In this document: positions 1 through 50,126 of the stretch, in pieces
How positions within the stretch are numbered: the stretch's first letter is position 1
How the letters are laid out: each line of letters begins with the position of its first letter
Sequence record: NC_049948.1
From: Escherichia phage ev017
DNA: 50,126 nucleotides
Direction: 5' to 3' (one strand)
Program-made: the position numbers and the translations under genes
The notes under the pieces: generated by a model
The model's input: only the letters and a program-made list of their open reading frames with translations
What the model was told of the DNA's origin: nothing
The model's database searches: none

Positions 1-90
1 TTTTTTTTTTTTTTTTTTTTTTTTCAAGCAGAAGACGGCATACGAGATTCGCCTTAGTCTCGTGGGCTCGGAGATGTGTATAAGAGACAG
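1..90. other. Non-biological Illumina Nextera/P7 adapter: poly-T, CAAGCAGAAGACGGCATACGAGAT, 8-nt index TCGCCTTA, GTCTCGTGGGCTCGG, mosaic end AGATGTGTATAAGAGACAG
   Basis: Adapter strings read directly in the sequence. Confidence 0.93.
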
Positions 91-269
91 CCTCGCGGTT
101 TTTCACTATTTATGAAAATTTTTCAGGGAAAATCGTGTCGGTACTTCTCGAATATAACTTTTTGTTTTTTTTAATATTGCATCCGTAAAGGTCCGACATG
201 AAAGTGTCCGAAAATGCCTTTTTCTGGCGTTTTCATGTCGGGCCTTGTATTTGATAATGGGTTGTTTTC
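91..269 (+). promoter_or_regulatory. cos: cos-proximal packaging region (cosB-like) upstream of terminase small subunit
   Basis: Insert begins CCTCGCGGTTTTTCACTATTTATGAAAATTT, resembling the lambda left end just inside the cohesive end; GTCCGACATGAAA-type direct and inverted repeats at about 191-245 resemble terminase R elements. Confidence 0.6.
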
Positions 270-818
270 ATGAAGGTTAATAAAAAGAGGCTTGCCGAAA
301 TTTTCAACGTGGACCCGCGGACGATTGAACGCTGGCAGTCTCAGGGACTCCCTTGCGCCTCCAAAGGTAGTAAGGGCATTGAATCTGTATTTGATACTGC
401 CATGGCAATTCAGTGGTATGCGCAGAGGGAAACTGATATCGAAAACGAAAAGCTCCGCAAAGAACTGGACGATTTGCGTGCGGCAGCGGAGTCAGATTTA
501 CAACCCGGCACCATTGACTATGAACGCTACCGGCTCACAAAAGCGCAGGCAGATGCGCAGGAACTGAAAAATGCCCGTGAAGACGGAGTAGTGCTGGAAA
601 CTGAACTGTTTACCTTCATTCTGCAACGTGTGGCACAGGAGATTTCGGGGATACTTGTGCGTGTGCCGTTGACATTACAGCGTAAATATCCGGACATTTC
701 ACCATCACACCTTGATGTGGTGAAAACTGAAATCGCGAAAGCCTCCAATGTTGCAGCTAAGGCCGGTGAAAACGTGGGCGGGTGGATCGATGATTTCAGA
801 CGCGCAGAAGGCAGCTAA
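270..818 (+). CDS. nu1: Terminase small subunit (Nu1-like)
   Basis: ORF of 182 aa; N-terminal MKVNKK...IFNV..RTI..WQ..G HTH and ...IENEKLR...[27 protein letters not shown] match lambda Nu1 pattern; first gene after cos. Confidence 0.9.
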
Positions 819-2718
819 TGCAGCCGGTGCGATAGCTACAGGGCTTTTATCTCTCATTATTCCTGTTCCACTGACGACAGTTCAGTGGGCCAATAAACAT
901 TATTACCTTCCTAAAGAGTCGTCTTATACCCCGGGGCGATGGGAAACACTGCCGTTTCAGGTTGGCATCATGAACTGTATGGGCAACGATCTGATTCGCA
1001 CGGTTAACCTGATTAAATCTGCCCGTGTTGGTTATACAAAGATGTTGCTGGGAGTGGAGGCTTATTTTATTGAGCATAAATCACGCAACAGCCTTCTTTT
1101 TCAGCCCACGGACTCAGCTGCTGAAGATTTTATGAAATCTCATGTTGAGCCAACGATAAGGGATGTTCCTGCATTGCTGGAGCTGGCTCCATGGTTCGGA
1201 AGAAAACACCGCGATAATACGCTCACCCTGAAGCGTTTTTCCTCCGGTGTGGGGTTCTGGTGTCTGGGTGGTGCGGCAGCAAAAAACTACCGTGAAAAAT
1301 CCGTGGATGTGGTCTGTTATGACGAGCTTTCCTCGTTCGAACCGGATGTTGAAAAAGAGGGTTCGCCAACCCTGCTGGGGGATAAACGTATTGAGGGCTC
1401 TGTATGGCCAAAATCCATTCGCGGCTCGACGCCTAAAATCAAAGGCTCCTGCCAGATCGAAAAAGCCGCTAACGAGTCGGCACACTTCATGCGTTTTTAT
1501 GTGCCCTGTCCGCACTGTGGGGAGGAGCAGTATCTGAAATTTGGCGATGATGCCTCGCCTTTCGGTCTTAAGTGGGAGAAGAATAAGCCAGAAAGTGTTT
1601 TCTACCTTTGTGAGCATCATGGCTGTGTGATCCATCAGTCTGAGCTTGACCAGAGTAACGGGCGGTGGATCTGTGAAAACACGGGCATGTGGACCCGTGA
1701 CGGCCTGATGTTTTTCAGCGCCCGGGGTGATGAAATTCCGCCGCCGCGCTCCATCACTTTCCATATCTGGACGGCGTACAGTCCGTTCACCACCTGGGTA
1801 CAGATTGTCTATGACTGGCTGGATGCACTGAAAGATCCCAACGGCCTGAAAACCTTTGTGAACACCACGCTGGGCGAGACCTGGGAAGAGGCTGTGGGCG
1901 AAAAACTCGATCACCAGGTGCTGATGGATAAGGTTGTGCGTTACACGGCGGCGGTGCCTGCCCGGGTGGTTTATCTGACGGCGGGCATTGACTCGCAGCG
2001 AAACCGTTTTGAGATGTATGTCTGGGGATGGGCTCCGGGAGAGGAAGCCTTTCTGGTGGATAAAATCATCATTATGGGGCGTCCCGATGAGGAAGAGACG
2101 CTGTTACGTGTGGATGCGGCGATCAACAAAAAATACCGCCATGCAGACGGAACCGAAATGACCATTTCCCGTGTCTGCTGGGACATCGGGGGGATCGATG
2201 GCGAAATCGTTTATCAGAGGTCAAAAAAACACGGTGTTTTCCGGGTGCTGCCGGTAAAAGGCGCGTCTGTCTATGGCAAGCCGGTGATCACCATGCCGAA
2301 AACCCGCAATCAGCGGGGCGTTTATCTGTGTGAAGTGGGGACGGACACCGCAAAAGAAATTCTCTATGCCCGTATGAAAGCCGAGCCCACGCCTGCGGAT
2401 GAAGCCACGTCGTATGCCATCCGTTTTCCTGATGATCCGGAGATTTTTTCGCAGACAGAGGCGCAGCAACTGGTCGCGGAAGAGCTTGTGGAGAAGTGGG
2501 AAAAAGGAAAGATGCGTCTGCTGTGGGATAACAAAAAGCGGCGTAACGAAGCGCTGGACTGCCTGGTGTATGCCTACGCGGCATTACGTGTGTCCGTGCA
2601 ACGCTGGCAGCTTGATCTGGCTGTACTGGCAAAATCCCGGGAAGAAGAGACGACCCGGCCAACCCTTAAAGAACTGGCAGCGAAGCTGTCCGGAGGAGTG
2701 AATGGTTACAGTCGCTGA
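790..2718 (+). CDS. A: Terminase large subunit (gpA-like)
   Basis: 656-aa ORF from 748; internal Met at 790 gives lambda-like length with [16 protein letters not shown] and long collinear similarity to lambda gpA; start overlaps Nu1 end as in lambda. Confidence 0.92.
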
Positions 2719-2908
2719 ACTGCAGGCGCTGCGTCAGGCGCGCCTTGATTTATTAACCGGTAAACGGGTGGTGTCTGTCCAGAAAGATGGTCGCAGAATT
2801 GAATATACGGCGGCTTCTCTGGATGAGCTTAACCGGGCGATCAATGATGCGGAGTCGGTACTGGGGACAACCCGGTGTCGCCGTCGTCCGCTGGGAGTGA
2901 GGTTATGA
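2702..2908 (+). CDS. W: Head-tail joining protein W
   Basis: 68-aa ORF; LTGKRVVSVQKDGRRIEYTAAS similar to lambda gpW; position between A and B. Confidence 0.85.
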   Translation: MVTVAELQALRQARLDLLTGKRVVSVQKDGRRIEYTAASLDELNRAINDAESVLGTTRCRRRPLGVRL

Positions 2909-4497
2909 AACGAACGCCTGTCCTGATTGATGTGAACGGCGTTCCGCTTCGTGAGAGTCTCAGCTACAACGGGGGCGGTGCAGGATTTGGCGGGCAAATG
3001 GCTGAGTGGTTGCCACCGGCGCAGAGTGCCGATGCGGCCCTGCTGCCCGCGTTGCGTCTGGGGAATGCCCGGGCAGATGATCTGGTGCGCAATAACGGAA
3101 TAGCGGCTAATGCGGTGGCTCTGCATAAGGATCACATTGTCGGGCATATGTTTCTGATCAGCTACCGTCCGAACTGGCGCTGGCTGGGGATGCGGGAGAC
3201 CGCAGCAAAAAGCTTTGTCGATGAGGTGGAGGCGGCCTGGTCGGAATACGCCGAAGGGATGTTTGGCGAGATCGACGTGGAAGGAAAACGCACGTTCACG
3301 GAATTTATCCGTGAAGGTGTGGGCGTTCATGCGTTTAACGGCGAAATCTTTGTGCAGCCGGTCTGGGATACGGAAACCACGCAGTTATTCCGTACGCGTT
3401 TTAAAGCCGTGAGTCCGAAACGGGTGGACACGCCTGGACACGGTATGGGGAACCGTTTTCTGCGGGCCGGTGTGGAGGTCGATCGATATGGCCGTGCCGT
3501 CGCGTACCATATCTGTGAGGATGATTTTCCGTTCTCTGGTAGTGGACGATGGGAACGGATCCCGCGTGAACTTCCCACCGGGCGTCCGGCCATGCTGCAT
3601 ATTTTCGAGCCGGTGGAGGACGGGCAGACCCGTGGGGCTAATCAGTTTTACAGCGTCATGGAACGGCTGAAGATGCTCGATTCCCTGCAGGCAACACAGC
3701 TTCAGTCGGCCATAGTGAAGGCGATGTATGCAGCGACGATTGAAAGTGAACTTGATACCGAAAAGGCCTTTGAATATATCGCCGGCGCGCCACAGGAGCA
3801 GAAGGATAATCCGCTTATTAATATTCTGGAGAAGTTTTCCAGCTGGTATGACACGAATAACGTGACACTGGGCGGTGTCAAAATTCCGCACCTTTTCCCT
3901 GGTGATGATCTGAAACTACAGACTGCGCAGGATTCAGACAATGGATTTTCTGCGCTTGAACAGGCGCTGCTGCGGTATATCGCCGCCGGTCTTGGCGTTT
4001 CCTACGAACAGTTGTCCCGTGATTACTCGAAGGTCAGTTACTCAAGTGCCCGCGCCTCCGCCAATGAGTCGTGGCGCTATTTTATGGGGCGGCGAAAATT
4101 TATTGCGGCCCGGCTGGCCACGCAGATGTTTTCCTGCTGGCTGGAAGAGGCACTTCTTCGGGGGATTATTCGTCCGCCACGGGCACGTTTTGATTTTTAT
4201 CAGGCGCGATCAGCCTGGTCACGGGCAGAGTGGATTGGTGCCGGAAGAATGGCCATTGACGGGCTCAAGGAAGTCCAGGAATCAGTGATGCGCATTGAGG
4301 CCGGACTGAGCACGTATGAGAAAGAGCTGGCGCTGATGGGCGAGGATTATCAGGACATTTTCCGCCAGCAGGTCAGGGAATCTGCTGAGCGGCAAAAAGC
4401 CGGACTCTCACGTCCGGTGTGGATAGAGCAGGCGTATCAGCAGCAGATAGCGGAGAGTCGCAGGCCGGAAGAGGAGACAACACCACGTGAGACGTAA
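2905..4497 (+). CDS. B: Portal protein (gpB-like)
   Basis: ORF 2875-4497; Met at 2905 (MKRTPVLIDVNG); strong collinear similarity to lambda gpB (e.g. HIFEPVEDGQTRGAN, LLRYIAAGLGVSYEQLSR). Confidence 0.92.
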   Translation: MKRTPVLIDVNGVPLRESLSYNGGGAGFGGQMAEWLPPAQSADAALLPALRLGNARADDLVRNNGIAANAVALHKDHIVGHMFLISYRPNWRWLGMRETAAKSFVDEVEAAWSEYAEGMFGEIDVEGKRTFTEFIREGVGVHAFNGEIFVQPVWDTETTQLFRTRFKAVSPKRVDTPGHGMGNRFLRAGVEVDRYGRAVAYHICEDDFPFSGSGRWERIPRELPTGRPAMLHIFEPVEDGQTRGANQFYSVMERLKMLDSLQATQLQSAIVKAMYAATIESELDTEKAFEYIAGAPQEQKDNPLINILEKFSSWYDTNNVTLGGVKIPHLFPGDDLKLQTAQDSDNGFSALEQALLRYIAAGLGVSYEQLSRDYSKVSYSSARASANESWRYFMGRRKFIAARLATQMFSCWLEEALLRGIIRPPRARFDFYQARSAWSRAEWIGAGRMAIDGLKEVQESVMRIEAGLSTYEKELALMGEDYQDIFRQQVRESAERQKAGLSRPVWIEQAYQQQIAESRRPEEETTPRET

Positions 4498-5992
4498 TCT
4501 TTCACACATTATTGCCGCAGCATTCAATGAACCGCTGCTTCTGGAGCCCGCCTATGCGCGGGTTTTCTTTTGCGCGCTCGGGCGCGAGATGGGGGCAGCA
4601 AGTCTTTCGGTACCACAACAGCAGGTACAGTTTGATGCTCCCGGAATGCTGGCTGAAACGGACGAGTACATGGCCGGAGGTAAACGACCGGCCCGTGTTT
4701 ACCGGGTGGTGAACGGTATTGCTGTACTGCCGGTGACCGGCACGCTGGTGCACCGGCTGGGTGGTATGCGGCCATTTTCCGGAATGACAGGCTATGACGG
4801 CATTGTCGCCTGTCTTCAGCAGGCAATGGCGGATAGCCAGGTGCGGGGCGTACTGCTGGACATTGACAGTCCGGGCGGGCAGGCCGCCGGCGCGTTTGAC
4901 TGCGCTGACATGATTTACCGCCTCCGTCAGCAGAAGCCGGTCTGGGCACTGTGCAATGACACGGCCTGTTCTGCAGCCATGCTGCTGGCGTCGGCCTGCT
5001 CCCGACGGCTGGTTACCCAGACATCCCGTATCGGCTCCATTGGCGTGATGATGAGCCATGTCAGCTATGCCGGTCATCTGGCGCAGGCCGGTGTGGATAT
5101 CACGCTGATTTACTCAGGGGCGCACAAGGTGGATGGCAATCAGTTTGAAGCGTTGCCGGCAGAGGTTCGCCAGGACATGCAGCAGCGGATTGATGCGGCG
5201 CGCCGGATGTTTGCCGAAAAAGTGGCGATGTATACCGGTCTGTCTGTTGATGCCGTCACGGGAACAGAGGCTGCCGTTTTTGAAGGTCAGTCCGGCATTG
5301 AGGCCGGGCTGGCGGATGAATTAATCAATGCGTCGGATGCCATCAGTGTGATGGCCACGGCGCTGAACAGTAATGTCAGAGGAGGCACTATGCCGCAATT
5401 AACTGCAACGGAAGCCGCCGCGCAGGAGAACCAGCGAGTGATGGGGATCCTGACATGCCAGGAAGCGAAAGGACGTGAACAGCTTGCCACGATGCTGGCA
5501 GGACAACAGGGCATGAGCGTTGAACAGGCCCGGGCGATTCTGGCCGCGGCGGCACCGCAGCAGCCGGTGGCATCCACGCAGAGTGAAGCCGATCGCATTA
5601 TGGCGTGTGAAGAAGCGAACGGTCGTGAACAACTGGCGGCAACGCTGGCGGCGATGCCGGAGATGACGGTGGAAAAAGCCCGCCCGATCCTGGCTGCTTC
5701 ACCGCAGGCGGATGCCGGACCATCACTCCGTGATCAGATCATGGCACTGGATGAGGCAAAAGGGGCTGAGGCGCAGGCTGAACAGCTGGCTGCCTGCCCG
5801 GGAATGACAGTGGAGAGCGCCCGGGCTGTGCTGGCTGCGGGATCAGGTAAGGCAGAACCGGTCTCTGCATCCACAACCGCCATGTTTGAACATTTCATGG
5901 CGAACCATTCACCGGCAGCGGTACAGGGTGGCGTGGCACAGACGTCAGCAGACGGTGATGCGGACGTGAAAATGCTCATGGCCATGCCATGA
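4487..5992 (+). CDS. C: Head maturation protease/scaffold (gpC-like, includes Nu3-like C-terminal region with tandem repeats)
   Basis: 501-aa ORF; AFNEPLLLEPAYARVFF and SGMTGYDGIVACLQQA match lambda gpC ClpP-like protease; C-terminal part carries three ~40-aa repeats. Confidence 0.9.
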   Translation: MRRNLSHIIAAAFNEPLLLEPAYARVFFCALGREMGAASLSVPQQQVQFDAPGMLAETDEYMAGGKRPARVYRVVNGIAVLPVTGTLVHRLGGMRPFSGMTGYDGIVACLQQAMADSQVRGVLLDIDSPGGQAAGAFDCADMIYRLRQQKPVWALCNDTACSAAMLLASACSRRLVTQTSRIGSIGVMMSHVSYAGHLAQAGVDITLIYSGAHKVDGNQFEALPAEVRQDMQQRIDAARRMFAEKVAMYTGLSVDAVTGTEAAVFEGQSGIEAGLADELINASDAISVMATALNSNVRGGTMPQLTATEAAAQENQRVMGILTCQEAKGREQLATMLAGQQGMSVEQARAILAAAAPQQPVASTQSEADRIMACEEANGREQLAATLAAMPEMTVEKARPILAASPQADAGPSLRDQIMALDEAKGAEAQAEQLAACPGMTVESARAVLAAGSGKAEPVSASTTAMFEHFMANHSPAAVQGGVAQTSADGDADVKMLMAMP

Positions 5993-22048: not shown

Positions 22049-22906
22049 CTAATTGGGTGATAACAGATCCTGTGTATGGGAGTTTCCCTTTTTGCGTGCG
22101 TTGATGCTGGTAACGGCAAACGTCATGATGAACAAAACCGCGAATAAGACGACAATCGTCGGAGCTGGTGCGCTGTCGATAAAAAAGGACAACCAGACAC
22201 CAGTCATTGACACTATTACCGATATGCCAGTCGCCAGTAGGAGCGCAATATGAAAGCGTTGTGTCAGGAGTACCGCAATGGCGCCAGGCGCAATGAGCAG
22301 AGAAATGGAGAGAATGATACCTACCGCTTTCAGCGTCGCCACAATGGTCAGAGAGACCATGCACAGCAGCCCATAATGCAGCCATCTCGTATGCAAACCG
22401 CTTACCTGCGCCTGTTGATAATCAAAGCTGAACAGCAAAAAATCCCGCCATTTTACGCTAATAACAAGTGTAACCAGCCCGGCAATAATCATCGTCTGGA
22501 TTATATCGCCGATGGTTATCCCGAGCATGTCGCCGAAAAGAATATGGTCAAGATGTACGTCTGGTTTGACTGCAATATACAAGATCAGACCTGCGGCAAA
22601 CATGCCAGAAAAAACAATCCCCATCACTGTATCTTGCTTGATTCGGCTGTTGTCTTTCAGGTATCCCGTCGCCACCGCGCAGAATACTCCGGCGACGAAT
22701 GCCCCTGTAGCCAAAGGTAACCCCAGAATCCAGGCAAGCACGATTCCAGGAAAAACCGCATGACTCATCGCGTCACCCATCAGTGCCCAACCTTTCAGGA
22801 CCAGAAAGACCGACAGCAGCGCACAGGGTATGGAAACTACCAGTGAAATCAGCAGTGCGTGACTCATAAAGGTGAACTGCAGTGGCTCCAGTAATAATGC
22901 CATCAT
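22049..22906 (-). CDS. sitD: Iron/manganese ABC transporter permease SitD
   Basis: 285-aa polytopic membrane protein typical of the ABC-3 permease family; last gene of a 4-gene operon. Confidence 0.88.
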   Translation of the reverse strand: MMALLLEPLQFTFMSHALLISLVVSIPCALLSVFLVLKGWALMGDAMSHAVFPGIVLAWILGLPLATGAFVAGVFCAVATGYLKDNSRIKQDTVMGIVFSGMFAAGLILYIAVKPDVHLDHILFGDMLGITIGDIIQTMIIAGLVTLVISVKWRDFLLFSFDYQQAQVSGLHTRWLHYGLLCMVSLTIVATLKAVGIILSISLLIAPGAIAVLLTQRFHIALLLATGISVIVSMTGVWLSFFIDSAPAPTIVVLFAVLFIMTFAVTSINARKKGNSHTQDLLSPN

Positions 22907-23760
22907 GAGCGATCCTCCAGCGCCTTATGCGCACGCCGACGATTTGCCAAAAGCCCATGGGTGGGCGCAAAGACAAATGCTAAAAGAAACAGCAGTGTCT
23001 GCGCCACCACGATGATTCCACCTGTCGCGCCGTCCAGAAAGTAACTGACCCACGCGCCGAGGAAACTAGTTACACTGCCAATAGTTACAGCAATCATGAG
23101 CAGGCGGGGAAAACGATCGGTTAACAACCATGCTGTTGCACCGGGAGTCACCACCAGACAGATCACCAGAAAGGCACCAACCGTTTGCAGCGCCGCAACG
23201 GTCGAAACCGACAGCAGGGTGAAGAAGATGAGTTTTAATCTGCCCGGATGCAATCCAATAGCACGGGCGTGATTCTCGTCGAAAAAGGTCACCATAAGAT
23301 CTTTCCATTTGAAAAAAAGCACGATGATCGAGAGAATGCCAATGATAGTGAGTTGCAGGATATCCGCCGGATCGATTGCCAGAATATTGCCCAGGACGAT
23401 GGTCTGAATGTTCACAGATGTCGGGTTCAATGACACCATAAACAGCCCCAGGCCAAAAAAGGACGAGAAGATCAGACCGATGATGGCATCTTCTTTTAAG
23501 CGGGTGCGTTGGTTAAGAAACAGCATGCTGCCCGCAGCCAGTCCGCCGGAAAAGAAGGCTCCCAGAGAAAACGGAAGCCCCAGCATATATGCCCCCGCAA
23601 CACCCGGGACAATAGAGTGCGACAACGCATCGCCAATCAGCGACCAGCCTTTTAGCATCAGATAGCATGACAGGAAAGCGCAGAGACCGCCGACCATCGC
23701 CGAGACCCACATCGCATTGAGCATATATTCATAGCTGAAGGGTTCCAGTAGCACGTTCAT
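22903..23760 (-). CDS. sitC: Iron/manganese ABC transporter permease SitC
   Basis: 285-aa ABC-3 family permease, translationally coupled to sitB and sitD. Confidence 0.88.
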
Positions 23761-24584
23761 CTTTCTTCCCTCTGCACCGCTGACGGTCGATGAGCCACAA
23801 AAGGGCGTTCATCGTCAGTAATAATGCTTTCTTCCGAGCCGTTAAGTGTGACATGGCGCAGTACGCCGCTAAAAGCCAGCTCTAGGTTCTCGGCTGTAAA
23901 AGTGGTGTCTGTCGGCCCGCTTGCCAGGACGGTGCCTTTGACCATGACCGTATAATCGCAAAATGTCGTGACGGATCCGAGATTGTGTGTTGAGACAAGC
24001 ATCGTTTTGCCTTCCGCGCGTAACTCCCTCAACAGGCTGATGATTTTGGCTTCGGTTTTCACATCAACGCCAGTAAAAGGTTCATCCAGCAGGATCACAT
24101 CACCCTGCTGTGCAATCGCTCTCGCCAGAAAGACGCGTTTCTTTTGTCCACCGGAAAGCTCGCCGATTTGTCGATGGCGAAAATTCACCATATCGACACG
24201 TTCCAGCGCATCGGTGACAATTTGACGATCCCTCTTTTTGGCGATACGCAACATACCCATATGCCCATAGCGGCCCATCATCACCACATCTTCCACCAGT
24301 ACAGGAAATGACCAGTCAACATCTTCTGACTGAGGGACGTAGGCAACCAGGTTTTTCTGTAACGCCTGTCGCGTGGGAATACCCAGAACAGATATCTTTC
24401 CGCTGGTCAGACGCACAAATCCCATAATCGCTTTAAACAACGTCGATTTTCCGGAACCGTTTACCCCAACCAGAGCGGCAATAGATCCACTTGGTACTGT
24501 GAAGGATGCATCGCGCAGTGCTGTGTGCCCGTTACGCCAGGTGACAGTAACATCATTAACGACAATGCCTGCAGATTGCATCAT
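23757..24584 (-). CDS. sitB: Iron/manganese ABC transporter ATP-binding protein SitB
   Basis: Walker [13 protein letters not shown] signature LSGGQKKR, Walker B ILLDEP. Confidence 0.92.
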
Positions 24585-25498
24585 TATTTCTCCCTTTTCC
24601 CAGCTTTAATTCCCTGTACCAGCGTACTGGTAGTAACCTTAAGAAGGTCGATATACGTCGGTACCGGGCCGTTTTCTGTGCTCAGGGAATCGACATAGAG
24701 CACACCGCCGTAGTGTGCGCCGGTTTCACGCGCAACCTGACGCGCTGGTTTATCGGAAATCGTACTCTCGCTAAAGACTGCCGGGATATGATTTTTCTTA
24801 ACTATATCAACAACCTTACGTACCTGCTGCGGTGTTCCTTGTTGATCGGCATTAATCGGCCACAGATAAAGCTCTTTTAGCCCCAAATCGCGTGCGAGAT
24901 AAGAAAAAGCCCCTTCACTGGTGACCATCCATCGCTGATTCTCAGGGAGTTCCGTAATCTGCTTACGCAGGGGGGCAAGGGTTTGGGTAATCTTGGCTTT
25001 ATAAGTATCGGCATTGCGTTGGTAGGTTTGTGCATTTGCCGGATCGTATTTTATCAACGCATCACGAATATTATCGACGTAAATCAGAGCATTATCTGGC
25101 GACATCCATGCATGGGGGTTAGGTTTGCCCTCATAGGGTCCTTCGGTGATCCCTACAGGCGTCACACCCGAAGAGACAATTACTTCTGGAACCCCATTGA
25201 GATGCTGGTAAAAGCGTTGGAACCACAATTCCAGATTCATACCATTGGCGAGAATCAGTTGTGCCCCCTGCGCACGTTTAATATCGCCAGGGGTAGGCTG
25301 ATACTCATGAATTTCTGCACCAGGCTTGGTTATGGATGAGACTTCTGCAGCATCTCCCGCCACGTTTTTGGCCATATCCGCGATGATGGTAAATGTTGTA
25401 ATGACCTTGAATTTTTCAGTTGCACTTGCCTGAAATGCGATCGAGCAGGTGAGTGCGAGGCCCCCCAAGAGCATGGTTACTTTTTTTATCGAGTGCAT
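24584..25498 (-). CDS. sitA: Periplasmic metal-binding protein SitA
   Basis: 304 aa with N-terminal signal peptide; cluster-9 metal-binding lipoprotein-like; first gene of operon. Confidence 0.88.
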
Positions 25499-25530
25499 AA
25501 TTTAGTACCTATAGTGAGCAAAATTAGAAC

Positions 25531-26955: not shown

Positions 26956-27414
26956 CAAGTAATACGGCGAGCGATATGACGTGCCATGGGATATCCGCAC
27001 CCAGCAGCATGTTGTCTCCACGATGTCCGCAGTTCGCTCATAATAGACATTCACTACAGTTATAGTAGAAGGTATGCATGCTGCTGAGTGGGGAAAGTGT
27101 GAAAGAAAAGAAGACAGCTGCTTTGTTTGTCGTCACGTTTATCTTCATTGGCTATGCAAGTCGTAATACAAGGCGGGACAAAACTGAGACACATAAGGCC
27201 TCGCAATGGCTTGCAAGGCCACACATGTATTGAGATGTTAATAAAATGTAGACTTGTAATTTTGATATAAATGGTAGAGAAAATCTTTCCCCAAAATAAA
27301 AACGAACGTCAATGAAATCAAACGGTTGAATAAAGTTGATTTTGGCTAATACAAAGACAAGAAAATAATATTTATGATTAAATATCAGCGAGTTGAATAC
27401 ATAATTTTTATATA

Positions 27415-27579
27415 CTGCTGCGCCATATGGGCTGGACTGAAGCCGCAGACCTGATTGTTAAAGGTATGGAAGGCGCAATCAATGCGAAGACCGTAACCTA
27501 TGACTTCGAACGTCTGATGGAAGGCGCTAAGCTGCTGAAATGTTCAGAGTTTGGTGATGCGATCATCAAGAATATGTAA
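27415..27579 (+). other. icd': Phage-borne 3' fragment of icd (isocitrate dehydrogenase) within the attP region
   Basis: Encodes ...[52 protein letters not shown]-stop, matching the C-terminus of E. coli Icd with substitutions; no upstream icd body. Confidence 0.8.
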
Positions 27580-27602
27580 TCACTACATGTGTTAAATATT
27601 GT

Positions 27603-27630
27603 AACGGGCGTATAACACGCCCGTTGTTTT
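27603..27630 (+). terminator. Rho-independent terminator-like hairpin after the icd fragment
   Basis: AACGGGCG-TATAACA-CGCCCGTT stem-loop followed by GTTTT. Confidence 0.6.
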
Positions 27631-27644
27631 ATGATGATGTAAAA

Positions 27645-27685
27645 TCTTCCCCAAAACTTTCCCCAAAACCCTTCCCCAAAACTGG
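27645..27685. repeat. Three tandem (C/T)TTCCCCAAAAC repeats; candidate integrase arm-type binding sites (a further copy at about 27284-27297)
   Basis: Direct repeats read in the sequence, immediately adjacent to the int stop. Confidence 0.55.
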
Positions 27686-27692
27686 CTATTTT

Positions 27693-33223: not shown

Positions 33224-33894
33224 TGCTCCCCAAATACAAAACTAATTTCAGCCAGTGCCTCGTCCATTTTTTCGATGAACTCCGGCACCATCTCGTCAAA
33301 ACTCGCCATGTACTTTTCATCCCGCTCAACCACGACATAATGCAGTCCTTCACGCTTCATACGCGGGTCATAGTTGGCAAAGTACCAGGCATCTTTTCGC
33401 GTCACCCACATGCTGTACTGCACCTGGGCCATGTAAGCCGATTTTATGGCCTCGAAACCACCGAGCCGGAACTTCATGAAATCCCGGGAGGTAAACGGGC
33501 ATTTCAGCTCAAGGCCGTTGCCGTCACTGCATAAACCATCGGGAGAGCAGGCGGTGCGCATACTTTCGTCGCGATAGATGATCGGGGATTCAGTAACATT
33601 CACGCCGGAAGTAAACTCAAACAGGGCTCTGGCGTCGTTCTCGTACTGTTTTCCCCAAGCCAGCGCCTTAGCGTTAACTTCCGGAGCCACACCGGTGCAA
33701 ACCTCAGCAAGCAGGGTGTGGAAGTAGGACATTTTCATGTCAGGCCATTTCTTTCCGGAGCGGGGTTTTGCTATCACGTTGTGAACTTCTGAAGCGGTGA
33801 TGACGCCGAGCCGTAATTTGTGCCATGCATCATCCCCCTGTTCGACAGCTCTCACGTCGATCCCGGTACGCTGCAGGATAATGTCCGGTGTCAT
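33214..33894 (-). CDS. exo: Lambda exonuclease (Red alpha)
   Basis: 226-aa ORF near-identical to lambda Exo. Confidence 0.95.
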
Positions 33895-42876: not shown

Positions 42877-43400
42877 CTATCAAATCAAATACGCCAGCAC
42901 ACGACAAGGACTGCTGGCAAACGCCGCTTTGGCTTTTTGATGCACTGGATATTGAGTTTGGATTCTGGCTGGATTCGGCAGCGAGCGACAAAAATGCTCT
43001 GTGCGCTCACTGGCTAACTGAGGACGACGACGCGCTCAATTCTGAGTGGGTAAGCCACGGTGCAATCTGGAATAACCCACCGTACAGCAATATCAGGCCG
43101 TGGGTGGAAAAAGCCGCTGAGCAGTGTATACAACAGCGACAGACGGTAGTGATGCTTGTGCCAGAGGATATGTCTGTCGGATGGTTCAGCAAGGCTCTGG
43201 AGAGTGTTGACGAAGTTCGTATTATCACTGATGGACGGATTAATTTTATCGAACCATCGACAGGGCTGGAGAAGAAGGGAAACAGCAAAGGCTCCATGCT
43301 GCTGATTTGGCGACCGTTCATCAGTCCTCGACGGATGTTTACTACCGTATCCAAAGCGGCATTGATGGCGATCGGGCAGGGCGTCAGGAGGGCTGCATGA
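42873..43400 (+). CDS. Phage DNA N6-adenine methyltransferase (orphan)
   Basis: ORF 42813-43400; from Met at 42873; NPPY motif (IWNNPPYSN); no adjacent restriction endonuclease. Confidence 0.75.
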
Positions 43401-45280: not shown

Positions 45281-46363
45281 TTAGAACTGATAAACCAGAC
45301 CTACAGCGACGATGTCGTCGGTATCAATACCAGCTGTTTTGGTAAACTTACTATCGTCAATTAAGTTGATTTTGTAATCAACAAAAGTGGACATGTTTTT
45401 ATTAAAGTAGTAAGTAGCACCGACATCGACATACTTGACTAAGTCTCGGTCACCATGAACACCAAGGTCTTTACCTTTTGACTGAAGGTAAGCAACAGAT
45501 GGACGCAGACCGAAGTCAAACTGATATTGTGCTACTGCTTCAAAGTTTTGTGCTTTGTTTGCAATATGGTTATTACCAAAAACGGTCATATTCTGAGTTT
45601 CAGAATATGTGGTAGCCAGATAGATATTGTTCGCATCATATTTCAGGCCTGCAGCCCATACTTCCGCATTTTTGCCGGAGGCATTGAATTTGCTCTTACC
45701 ATAGGCGACCTGACCGTCAGTGCGATCTGATTTAGCATAGGTTGCACCCACGCCGAATCCTTCATACTCATAAGTAGTGGAGAAACCGAAACCATCACCA
45801 TTGGCTTCAGTTACGTCAGTGCGGTCATTTTTACCCTGATACTGAGCAGCAAAGTTCAGGCCATCGACCAGACCAAAGAAGTCGTTGTTACGATAAGTTG
45901 CAACACCAGTAGTGCGACCAGTCATGAACACATCTGTTTGGGTCCAGGTATCACCACCGAATTCTGGCAGAACGTCAGTCCACGCACCGATGTCGTATGC
46001 TACACCGTAGTTACGGCCGTAATCGATTGAGCCGTAATCACCAAATTTCAGGCCTGCAAATGCAAGACGGGTTTTGTCTTTGGAAGAACCTTGAGATTCA
46101 GCACGGTTGCCTTTGAATTCATATTCCCACTGACCGAAACCAGTCAGTTGATCGTTGATTTGGGTTTCACCTTTGAAGCCAAGACGGGCATAAGTAGTAT
46201 CACCATCATCTGCATCATTAGAGGAGAAGTAGTGCTTGGCATTAACTTTCCCGTATAGATCCAGCTTGTTACTGTCTTTATTATAAATTTCAGCTGCCTG
46301 AGCAGACATCGCCATCAGTACTGATGCAGCTACAGCAGAAATTGCCACTGTTAATTTTTTCAT
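45281..46363 (-). CDS. Outer-membrane porin (OmpC/NmpC/Lc family), phage-borne
   Basis: ORF 45281-46423; from [23 protein letters not shown] signal peptide; general porin repeats; C-terminal VGLVYQF with terminal Phe. Confidence 0.9.
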
Positions 46364-46951
46364 TGTACGCCCTTTTTTTGAACTTTTATTAAAAAATGAT
46401 GTCACTGCGCGATAAATATTCATCTAATCAATGTGATTATTTCAAGATGTAAGTTTTAGTTTCTCATTTAATTTGTGAAGTAGATCTCTATTTTTATCTG
46501 AACCTTTTCTATCTAATCCTATTCATGGCTCTTGTCTGAACAAAAATAAATCTATTAGCTAATTTATATTAATGGCACTTATTTATAAGTGCTCTATAAT
46601 TCTTTAGCTTAATTTAAACAAACTAAAAATAACATCGGAAATTATTAACTGGTTATTTGTTGAAGTTTTCTTATGCATTTGTGGTGGTGTTTTGAACACT
46701 CGGTGGCATTCTCACAAATATCATTTAGTAGTTTACGTACGTAAAAAATTGGTTATGCTGTTAAGAGTGGTTACTTCGTCACACAGCTTAAACCCGCCGT
46801 CGAGCGGGTTTTTCCATTTTTTGAGTCTCGATATTAGCTGATAACCCAATACCTGAGTTATTCACTGACTCCGAATCTGTTACGTTTCTGCCTTTATTGC
46901 GATACGTAGTATCCCCTTAATTTACACCCGCTTTGTCTGCGAGGTGGGGTT

Positions 46952-49869: not shown

Positions 49870-50019
49870 TTGATGATGCCTCTGTGTGAAATGACGGTAA
49901 ACGACGCACTTGTGCCGGCACATAATAGCAAGCACCATAATAGATCAGATTCGATTCTTGCTGTAAGTGATAATTATTCTCGTTTTCGGGTCCTTTCCGT
50001 CGATCCAACAGGTTACGGG

Positions 50020-50126
50020 TGTCTCTTATACACATCTGACGCTGCCGACGAATAGAGAGGTGTAGATCTTCGTGGTACCCGTCTCGTTAAAAAAAAAAAC
50101 TAAGACGTGGTACCATATTAGAGTTA
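50020..50126. other. Non-biological Illumina Nextera adapter (mosaic end TGTCTCTTATACACATCTGACGCTGCCGACGA, index ATAGAGAG, degenerate P5, poly-A)
   Basis: Adapter strings read directly; preceded by ...GATCCAACAGGTTACGGG resembling the lambda right end. Confidence 0.92.

Follow-up and report, generated by a model that had tools for sequence, protein, structure and literature searches.

The window analysed here, a 50,126-nt stretch recorded as Escherichia phage ev017 (NC_049948.1), holds a complete lambdoid phage genome at positions 91-50019, running from terS to the lysis genes in the order of the virion and bordered on both sides by sequence of library origin (Table 1). At the left of this genome, the cosB subsites lie between the cohesive-end site (cosN) and terS in the order R3-I1-R2-R1, with R2 inverted, an order that matches the published architecture (PMC9026076). 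Directly downstream of cosB are encoded a Nu1-family terminase small subunit (TerS) and a gpA-family large subunit (TerL). The product of gene 1 matches Pfam family PF07471 (Phage_Nu1) with an E-value of 1.9e-81, whereas that of gene 2 carries GpA_ATPase and GpA_nuclease domains (PF05876, PF20454); TerL is, as far as its domains can tell, the endonuclease that would nick cosN and also the packaging ATPase. Features annotated in phage 21 were placed by coordinate mapping, that is, a window position equals the phage 21 coordinate plus 81 or the M81255 coordinate minus 85.

Table 1. Positions of the cos subsites, terminase genes and library-derived segments in the window
Feature	Position	Strand	Basis or remark
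T24 run	1-24	+	non-biological; reverse complement of poly-A read once the library molecule had ended
Nextera i7 index primer N701	25-71	+	exact match, 47/47
P7, CAAGCAGAAGACGGCATACGAGAT	25-48	+	part of N701
i7 index, TCGCCTTA	49-56	+	part of N701
Read-2 tail, GTCTCGTGGGCTCGG	57-71	+	part of N701
Tn5 mosaic end (ME), AGATGTGTATAAGAGACAG	72-90	+	exact; 3′ end joined to phage base C10
CCT, bases 10-12 of GGGCGGCGACCT (right part of cosN)	91-93	+	junction alignments with OL657228.1, M81255.1 and PhiR57_1
IHF site I2	111-125	+	M81255.1 feature 196-210, mapped
cosB R3, AATCGTGTCGGTACTT, putative site for the TerS (gp1) DNA-binding domain	131-146	+	OL657228.1 50-65, M81255.1 216-231; sequence identical
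cosB I1, IHF bending site between R3 and R2	155-167	-	OL657228.1 feature 74-86
cosB R2, TTTCATGTCGGACCTT, opposite to R3 and R1	188-203	-	OL657228.1 107-122, M81255.1 273-288
cosB R1, TTTCATGTCGGGCCTT(G)	231-246/247	+	OL657228.1 150-166, M81255.1 316-331
IHF-like site I0, which overlaps the ribosome-binding site of gene 1	253-267	+	M81255.1 feature 338-352
Gene 1, terminase small subunit (TerS, Nu1 homologue, 182 aa)	270-818	+	phage 21 CDS 189-737
Gene 2, terminase large subunit (TerL, gpA homologue)	790-2718	+	phage 21 CDS 709-2637, +81
cosQ/'R4' box, CGGGTCCTTTCC	49987-49998	+	M81255.1 feature 136-147, mapped; conserved with the lambda right end
GG, cohesive-end bases 1-2	50018-50019	+	PhiR57_1 junction alignment
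Right-end artefact, whole	50020-50126	+	mirror of the left end
ME reverse complement without its first C, TGTCTCTTATACACATCT	50020-50037	+	1 mismatch or deletion if taken as 50019-50037
Read-1 tail, GACGCTGCCGACGA	50038-50051	+	Nextera sequence match
ATAGAGAG, reverse complement of N502/S502 index CTCTCTAT	50052-50059	+	sequence match
P5 reverse complement	50060-50088	+	6 errors; 23/29 bases match
A11	50089-50099	+	homopolymer
Junk or noise, 27 nt	50100-50126	+	none

Among the cosB elements, R2 and R1 are the sole matches without mismatch to the R-box consensus in the 50 kb, and they differ from one another at one of 16 positions. The two boxes make up the outer part of a larger inverted repeat with 27-nt arms (188-214 and 220-246). 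R-box-like matches at 5893, 19048 and 33733, each with two to three mismatches, were set aside as being at chance level (1.55 expected). On the minus strand, I1 (AAACAAAAAGTTA) has one mismatch to the IHF consensus WATCAANNNNTTR, and I0 likewise contains a one-mismatch copy of that consensus on the minus strand at 255-267. At the other end of the genome, the heptamer GGGTCCT inside CGGGTCCTTTCC is the packaging-termination signal of lambda cosQ.

An earlier note on this DNA had proposed that direct and inverted repeats at about 191-245 are terminase R (cosB) elements. As regards the inverted pair this holds, since the pair is identical with R2 and R1 as annotated in M81255.1 and OL657228.1, and the sequence supports the assignment of the repeats as putative TerS binding sites, the term 'putative' being the one with which M81255.1 marks R3, R2 and R1 of phage 21. 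The direct copy, in turn, had to be given up: GTGTCCGAAAATG (about 203-215), considered as a fourth R box, is unannotated in the phage 21 records and shares only GTCCGA with R2, and it is accounted for as the inner part of an arm of the inverted repeat with 27-nt arms. The earlier note did not contain R3, I1, cosQ, the right-end artefact or the seven bases missing from cos (see below).

A palindrome placed as this one is could also function mainly as an RNA or DNA hairpin, either as a terminator or as a translational regulator of gene 1, rather than as a pair of TerS sites. That is, the region at 188-246 folds as RNA with a free energy of -35.5 kcal/mol (z = -8 versus shuffled sequences), it ends 23 nt before the start codon of gene 1, and a weak terminator-like pattern was called at 223-242. 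However, the outer 16-mers match R3 (9-nt core TGTCGG plus flanks), which is located 40 nt outside the palindrome, and a match in such a place is what repeats bound by a protein, and not a hairpin, would be expected to show. Moreover, lambda has the same inverted R2/R1 arrangement in unrelated sequence (16-mers at 109-124 and 151-166), and the position and orientation of the boxes fit the R3-I1-R2-R1 scheme (PMC9026076). There is no proper T-run after the stem. In addition, late transcription of lambda must read through cos into the head genes, which counts against a terminator, and the terminator reading was rejected. We consider it highly unlikely that the hairpin is the main function of the palindrome. 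The two roles are nonetheless compatible, and the hairpin may have a secondary one.

With R2 and R1 taken as TerS sites, the locus could operate as in the established lambda/21 model, in which IHF bends cosB at I1 and, for phage 21 with its R3-I1-R2-R1 order and inverted R2, the TerS dimer docks across the IHF bend (PMC9026076, PMC4669245). R3 and the inverted R2 would be bound by the winged-helix domains of the gp1 dimer, R1 being a third site, and TerS would then anchor gp2 (TerL), leading to nicks 12 nt apart in cosN. Packaging would start rightwards into gene 1, and the complex would stay on the cosB end until the next cosQ-cosN is reached.

The DNA to the left of the genome is of a different nature. 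Positions 25-90 consist of P7, an i7 index, the Nextera read-2 tail and the ME, and agree with these at 66 of 66 bases (0 mismatches), whereas about 2e-35 such matches would be expected by chance in the window. The N701 primer is printed letter for letter as positions 25-71 in two unrelated papers (PMC9454148, PMC5902506). The plus-strand ME has a single copy in the window, at 72-90, and no adapter copies were detected inside the window away from its two ends. Only two homopolymers of at least 10 bases occur in the window, both at its extreme ends, and the T24 run is found neither in phage 21 nor in PhiR57_1. This run presumably originated from the T-spacer of the flow-cell oligonucleotide plus empty sequencing cycles. 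The exact matches to N701 and to the ME confirm what had been proposed for bases 1-90, namely that they are poly-T followed by a P7/Nextera adapter with index and are non-biological. The left-end finding is an untrimmed Nextera adapter beside the characterised cos of phage 21, which is correct, ordinary and already known.

The right end carries the counterpart of this arrangement. The sequence of the N502 primer, whose index is found there in reverse complement, was taken from the same two papers (PMC9454148, PMC5902506). The P5-side adapter is in reverse complement at the end opposite P7, as in one library molecule, and the window as a whole reads polyT-P7-i7-ME-[insert]-ME′-i5′-P5′-polyA, as if it were one giant library molecule. 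We take the left tail to be a canonical read-1 read-through and the right tail to be a read-2 read-through, which is noisier; from what is known of Illumina chemistry, assembled read-through tails would give exactly this layout at both contig ends. The junction at this noisy right end (2|3) is shifted by one base relative to other assemblies, and it is there that the ME lacks its first C.

The insert starts at position 91 with CCTCGCGGTTTTTCAC. Positions 91-290 are 100% identical to bp 10-209 of phage 21, and over 91-3000, which includes gene 1, the identity to Escherichia phage 21 is 99.8%. Three phage 21 records have base 1 of the cohesive end as their first base (OL657228.1, in which cosN is annotated at 1-12, X02501.1 and M23775.1), and window position 91 aligns to base 10 of these; therefore, the CCT at the start of the insert represents bases 10-12 of GGGCGGCGACCT. 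On the right side, position 50017 corresponds to base 42931, with which the phage 21 genome ends, i.e. the mature right end, and the right-terminal 3 kb are 98.6% identical to phage 21 with the same end base. Thus, of cosN the window contains only the GG and the CCT, while both flanks (...TTACG and CGCGG...) are present, and cos bases 3-9 (GCGGCGA, 7 nt) are missing. The full 12-mer is seen in PhiR57_1, M81255.1 and E. coli prophages; in the first two the junction reads ...CAGGTTACG|GGGCGGCGACCT|CGCGGTTTTTCAC... (TTACG|GGGCGGCGACCT|CGCGG). When the junction of the window was rebuilt with the seven bases, it was found with 100% identity over 609 nt in prophages of numerous complete E. coli chromosomes, and its coverage reaches 80% or more in 291 genomes. 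The chromosomes with an identical rebuilt junction include those of Nissle 1917 and ATCC 11775.

It had been suggested before that the insert begins at the lambda left terminus, with the last three bases of the 12-nt cohesive end. The alignment of position 91 to base 10 bears out the position within the cohesive end; the lambda identity, however, has to be replaced, since the closest relative is phage 21, and many cosB positions are different in lambda. With a cos region 100% identical to that of phage 21 and R boxes unlike those of lambda, the cos site is, by these sequence criteria, predicted to be of the phage 21 packaging specificity and not of that of lambda.

Homology to both phage 21 and PhiR57_1 begins exactly at 91 and ends at 50017/50019, and the adapter is absent from both phages. 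The phage attachment site (attP) is contiguous in the window, and no host DNA is found at either end. A segment of 459 bp (27234-27692) comprising attP carries a 3′ fragment of icd; it is omitted in the PhiR57_1 record, and in lysogen chromosomes the match breaks at this segment in most of those listed. For two arbitrary ends to fall in the same 12 nt of a 49.9-kb genome, the chance is about 6e-8. Because both ends lie inside the 12-mer at so low a chance expectation, attP is contiguous and host flanks are lacking, the contig must have cos, and no host DNA, at its borders. The same had been claimed from the left end; the right end agrees with it, as it stops at cos base 2 and is capped by adapter.

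An alternative would be that the template was covalently continuous (a closed circle, a replicating concatemer or a prophage), and that the ends are in cosN by coincidence, at ordinary Tn5 sites or through chimeric reads. It is true that an assembler can open a circular genome at any point and that untrimmed Nextera data have reads with adapter throughout, internal copies being present in some public phage records. Yet such breaks would have had to fall twice within the same 12 nt, at the probability given above. Furthermore, circular assembly normally gives overlapping ends and a single Tn5 event gives a 9-bp duplication, whereas here 7 nt are missing, and independent assemblies repeatedly show identical junction bases. 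The contiguous attP, with no host flanks, excludes a prophage as the source. Altogether, a continuous template appears extremely unlikely. The window is very probably a short-read assembly of cos-cut DNA of the phage 21 type, obtained from a Nextera (Tn5) library with indices N701 and N502.

With a cos-cut template, in which cosN has been nicked by terminase, few if any library fragments would bridge the cohesive end. The outermost fragments would start at a Tn5 junction, located 9 nt from the 5′ end of the overhang on the left (C10) and at 10 nt on the right (G2). Reads of short outermost inserts would run on into the adapter and from there into poly-A and noise, and the assembler could have retained these tails as contig extensions, there being no competing path of genomic sequence at a terminus. 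A cos-cut template together with read-through tails would thus account both for the non-biological segments at 1-90 and 50020-50126 and for the missing GCGGCGA. Loss of genome termini from Nextera/tagmentation libraries has been described (PMC5557969, PMC8785237). In addition, the same artefact, at the same bases, is present in independent public assemblies, namely Lambda_4C10, ev066, ev110, ev099 and P2_2H4.

Searches of a phage collection with the two Nextera ME-plus-tail sequences returned 26 and 41 records, with matches mostly at record ends. Adapter-bearing records include LR595861.1 (Lambda_4C10), LR597653.1 (ev066), LR597652.1 (ev110), LR595869.1 (P2_2H4) and MH538296.1 (Maceta). Most public records have a partial adapter at one end, whereas the window keeps the full primer, index, poly-T or poly-A and noise at both ends. 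The ME junction of the lambdoid and P2 records falls within the cohesive end, at G3 or at C10/G10. That is, Lambda_4C10 starts at C4 and ends with ...TTACG GGG|CTGTCTC, and Lambda_ev066 has the same right end and starts at bp 24; Lambda_ev110 starts at CCTCGCGG (C10) and ends with ...TTACGGGGC followed by T8 and P7; ev099 has the ME joined to bp 44 on the left and ends with ...TTACGGGGC; and P2_2H4, with a 19-nt cohesive end, has the junctions ME|G10 on the left and G9|ME′ on the right. On the left, the ME is joined to bp 44 in ev203 and to bp 52 in ev207. The left ends of ev099, ev203, ev207 and ev066 are well inside the genome and not terminal. A junction in Salmonella phage SW9 (ME|GGAAAGCAT) is unplaced, the cohesive-end sequence being absent from that record.

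Taken together, among the Nextera assemblies of 5′-overhang cos phages inspected here, the junctions or record ends in the 12-nt lambda/21 cohesive end are at 3|4 or 9|10 (left end of the window, 4C10, ev066, ev110 and ev099), and both ends of P2_2H4, in the 19-nt P2 end, are at 9|10. Each terminal junction is therefore exactly 9 nt from one of the terminase nicks, whether the overhang is of 12 or 19 nt, with the right end of the window as the exception, off by one, in a sample that is small and comes largely from one sequencing project, so that the offset is a lead and not a result. If the recurrent offset is general, it could point to a nick- or end-directed insertion mode of Tn5, a proposal to which we give somewhat less than an even chance. 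By inspection, neither microhomology between the ME and cos nor a Tn5 target consensus offered an obvious explanation for the junctions. A search for further ME-to-cos fusions with the pattern TGTATAAGAGACAG N0-14 CGCGGKTTTTCRCTATTTATG gave 0 matches in the viral, metagenome and genome contig collections, and hence no extra replicates; the contig of the window itself is thus absent from these collections in its present form.

These offsets also bear on the state of the cut DNA. As a variant of the main explanation, the cohesive ends might have been annealed, in nicked circles or concatemers, at the time of tagmentation, in which case the junctions would be Tn5 events positioned by the nick. 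The left junction of P2_2H4 is 9 nt into a 19-nt overhang, which at a free end would be pure single-stranded DNA and a poor target for Tn5. The stagger of Tn5 is 9 nt, which is also the distance to a nick for all terminal junctions seen, bar the right end of the window; standard Tn5 geometry can account for those junctions whose strand is the opposite of that with the nick, as one of the two points of attack would then lie on the nick in annealed cos. Moreover, the record ends abut exactly in 4C10 (C4...G3) and in P2_2H4 (G10...G9). However, the standard geometry fits only those opposite-strand junctions, and the left C10 junction of the window, which shares its strand with the nick at a distance of 9 nt, is left unexplained; about ten ends were sampled, several of them from one study. 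Annealed ends are thus a possibility that we entertain tentatively, leaning against it, within the broader reading of the window as cos-cut DNA.

Biologically, the cos site is a textbook phage 21 site and contains nothing new, and the value of the analysis is mostly practical. Positions 1-90 and 50020-50126 should be trimmed before annotation or database submission, and restoring GCGGCGA gives the true genome of 49,936 bp, with its ends at cosN. Untrimmed Nextera adapters persist in GenBank/RefSeq phage records, and some have been annotated as coding sequence. Only the recurrent 9-nt distance between Tn5 junctions and terminase nicks reaches somewhat further: if it is true, untrimmed read-through junctions could be used to map cos nick positions to the base from tagmentation libraries, although the usual view of Nextera data is that phage termini are lost.

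Compared with known systems, the packaging locus is that of phage 21 (OL657228.1, M81255.1, X02501.1), whose annotated cos subsites and genes 1 and 2 map one to one onto the window. The two genomes differ in size (42.9 kb in phage 21 versus 49.9 kb in the window), the window is without cos bases 3-9, and its right half is closer to ev207/PhiR57_1 than to phage 21. The closest whole genome is that of Escherichia phage PhiR57_1 (PV340572.1, host ECOR13), which has the same gene content and is essentially the same phage, with 26 mismatches and one gap in total (22 mismatches and the gap over a segment of 27,148 bp, and 4 mismatches over another of 22,327 bp). Its record is permuted and starts at int; the 12-nt cos junction is intact there, and the 459-bp attP/icd segment is not included; a literature search found no paper on this phage. 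Lambda (NC_001416.1) has the same 12-nt cohesive end as the window, and both GGGTCCT and CAGGTTACG are conserved at its right end. The layout of its cosB is also the same, with R3 at about bp 50-65, R2 and R1 as inverted 16-mers and the TerS start at about bp 190 (PMC9026076). The R boxes themselves, however, are CTGTCGTTTCCTTTCT in lambda versus TTCATGTCGGGCCTT in the 21 type, a difference known to be the basis of the distinct packaging specificities of lambda and phage 21 (PMC4669245, PMC9026076).

In independent public Nextera assemblies of both lambdoid and P2-like cos phages (those compared were LR595861.1, LR597653.1, LR597652.1, LR597635.1 and LR595869.1), the record end or the site of adapter attachment lies within the cohesive end, either between positions 3 and 4 or between positions 9 and 10. 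At each position the distance from the junction to a terminase nick is exactly 9 nt, whether the overhang is 12 or 19 nt long. This spacing suggests a mode of Tn5 insertion directed by the nick or by the DNA end. Junctions in the nicked strand itself are left unexplained.

The right contig end of the window carries a mirror of the left-end artefact. Here, the cos bases GG are followed by the reverse complement of the Tn5 mosaic end, from which the first C is missing, and then by the read-1 tail, the N502 index, a P5 sequence with many errors, A11 and finally 27 nt of noise, and this stretch needs trimming in the same way as bases 1-90. Nextera adapter has also been kept at the ends of phage records in GenBank and RefSeq, the two adapter halves matching 26 and 41 phage records, respectively, and it is spanned by annotated 'hypothetical protein' CDSs, e.g. 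in ev207 and ev066.

Coordinates of adapter remnants and of other features in the window
Record	Position	Feature
Window	50018-50126	right-end artefact
LR597636.1 / NC_049949.1	1-47	adapter
LR597653.1	46682-46723	adapter
LR597652.1	46697-46770	adapter
ev207	1-186	CDS spanning adapter
ev066	46495-46722	CDS spanning adapter
Window	188-246	R2-R1 palindrome
Window	~22054-25503	sitABCD
Window	27234-27692	attP region and icd 3' fragment
Window	33733-33748	R-box-like match
Window	~45281-46423	OmpD/OmpC-like porin gene

The PhiR57_1 record, nearly identical in other respects and apparently trimmed to CDS boundaries, lacks a 459-bp segment of the window that contains the attP region and a 3' fragment of the isocitrate dehydrogenase gene icd. 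The match is also broken at this segment in most of the lysogen chromosomes among those listed, as expected for phages that, like 21 and e14, have icd as their integration site. A sitABCD manganese/iron ABC transporter operon lies between attP and the genes for the tail fibre, and a porin gene lies downstream of Q (positions transferred from the PhiR57_1 annotation); both are bacterial-type cargo. Bor and a partial tonB-like ORF are located near the right end.

A further match to the R-box consensus, TTTCATGTCAGGCCAT, with two mismatches, is found within the early region; it is probably meaningless, because the number of matches of such quality in the window is close to chance. The cosB boxes R2 and R1 make up the outer portion of an imperfect palindrome of 59 nt located 23 nt upstream of the start codon of gene 1 (TerS); as RNA, this palindrome is predicted to fold with -35.5 kcal/mol (z = -8), and it may have a secondary function in the late transcript. 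Lambda has an analogous R2-R1 palindrome, but of different sequence.
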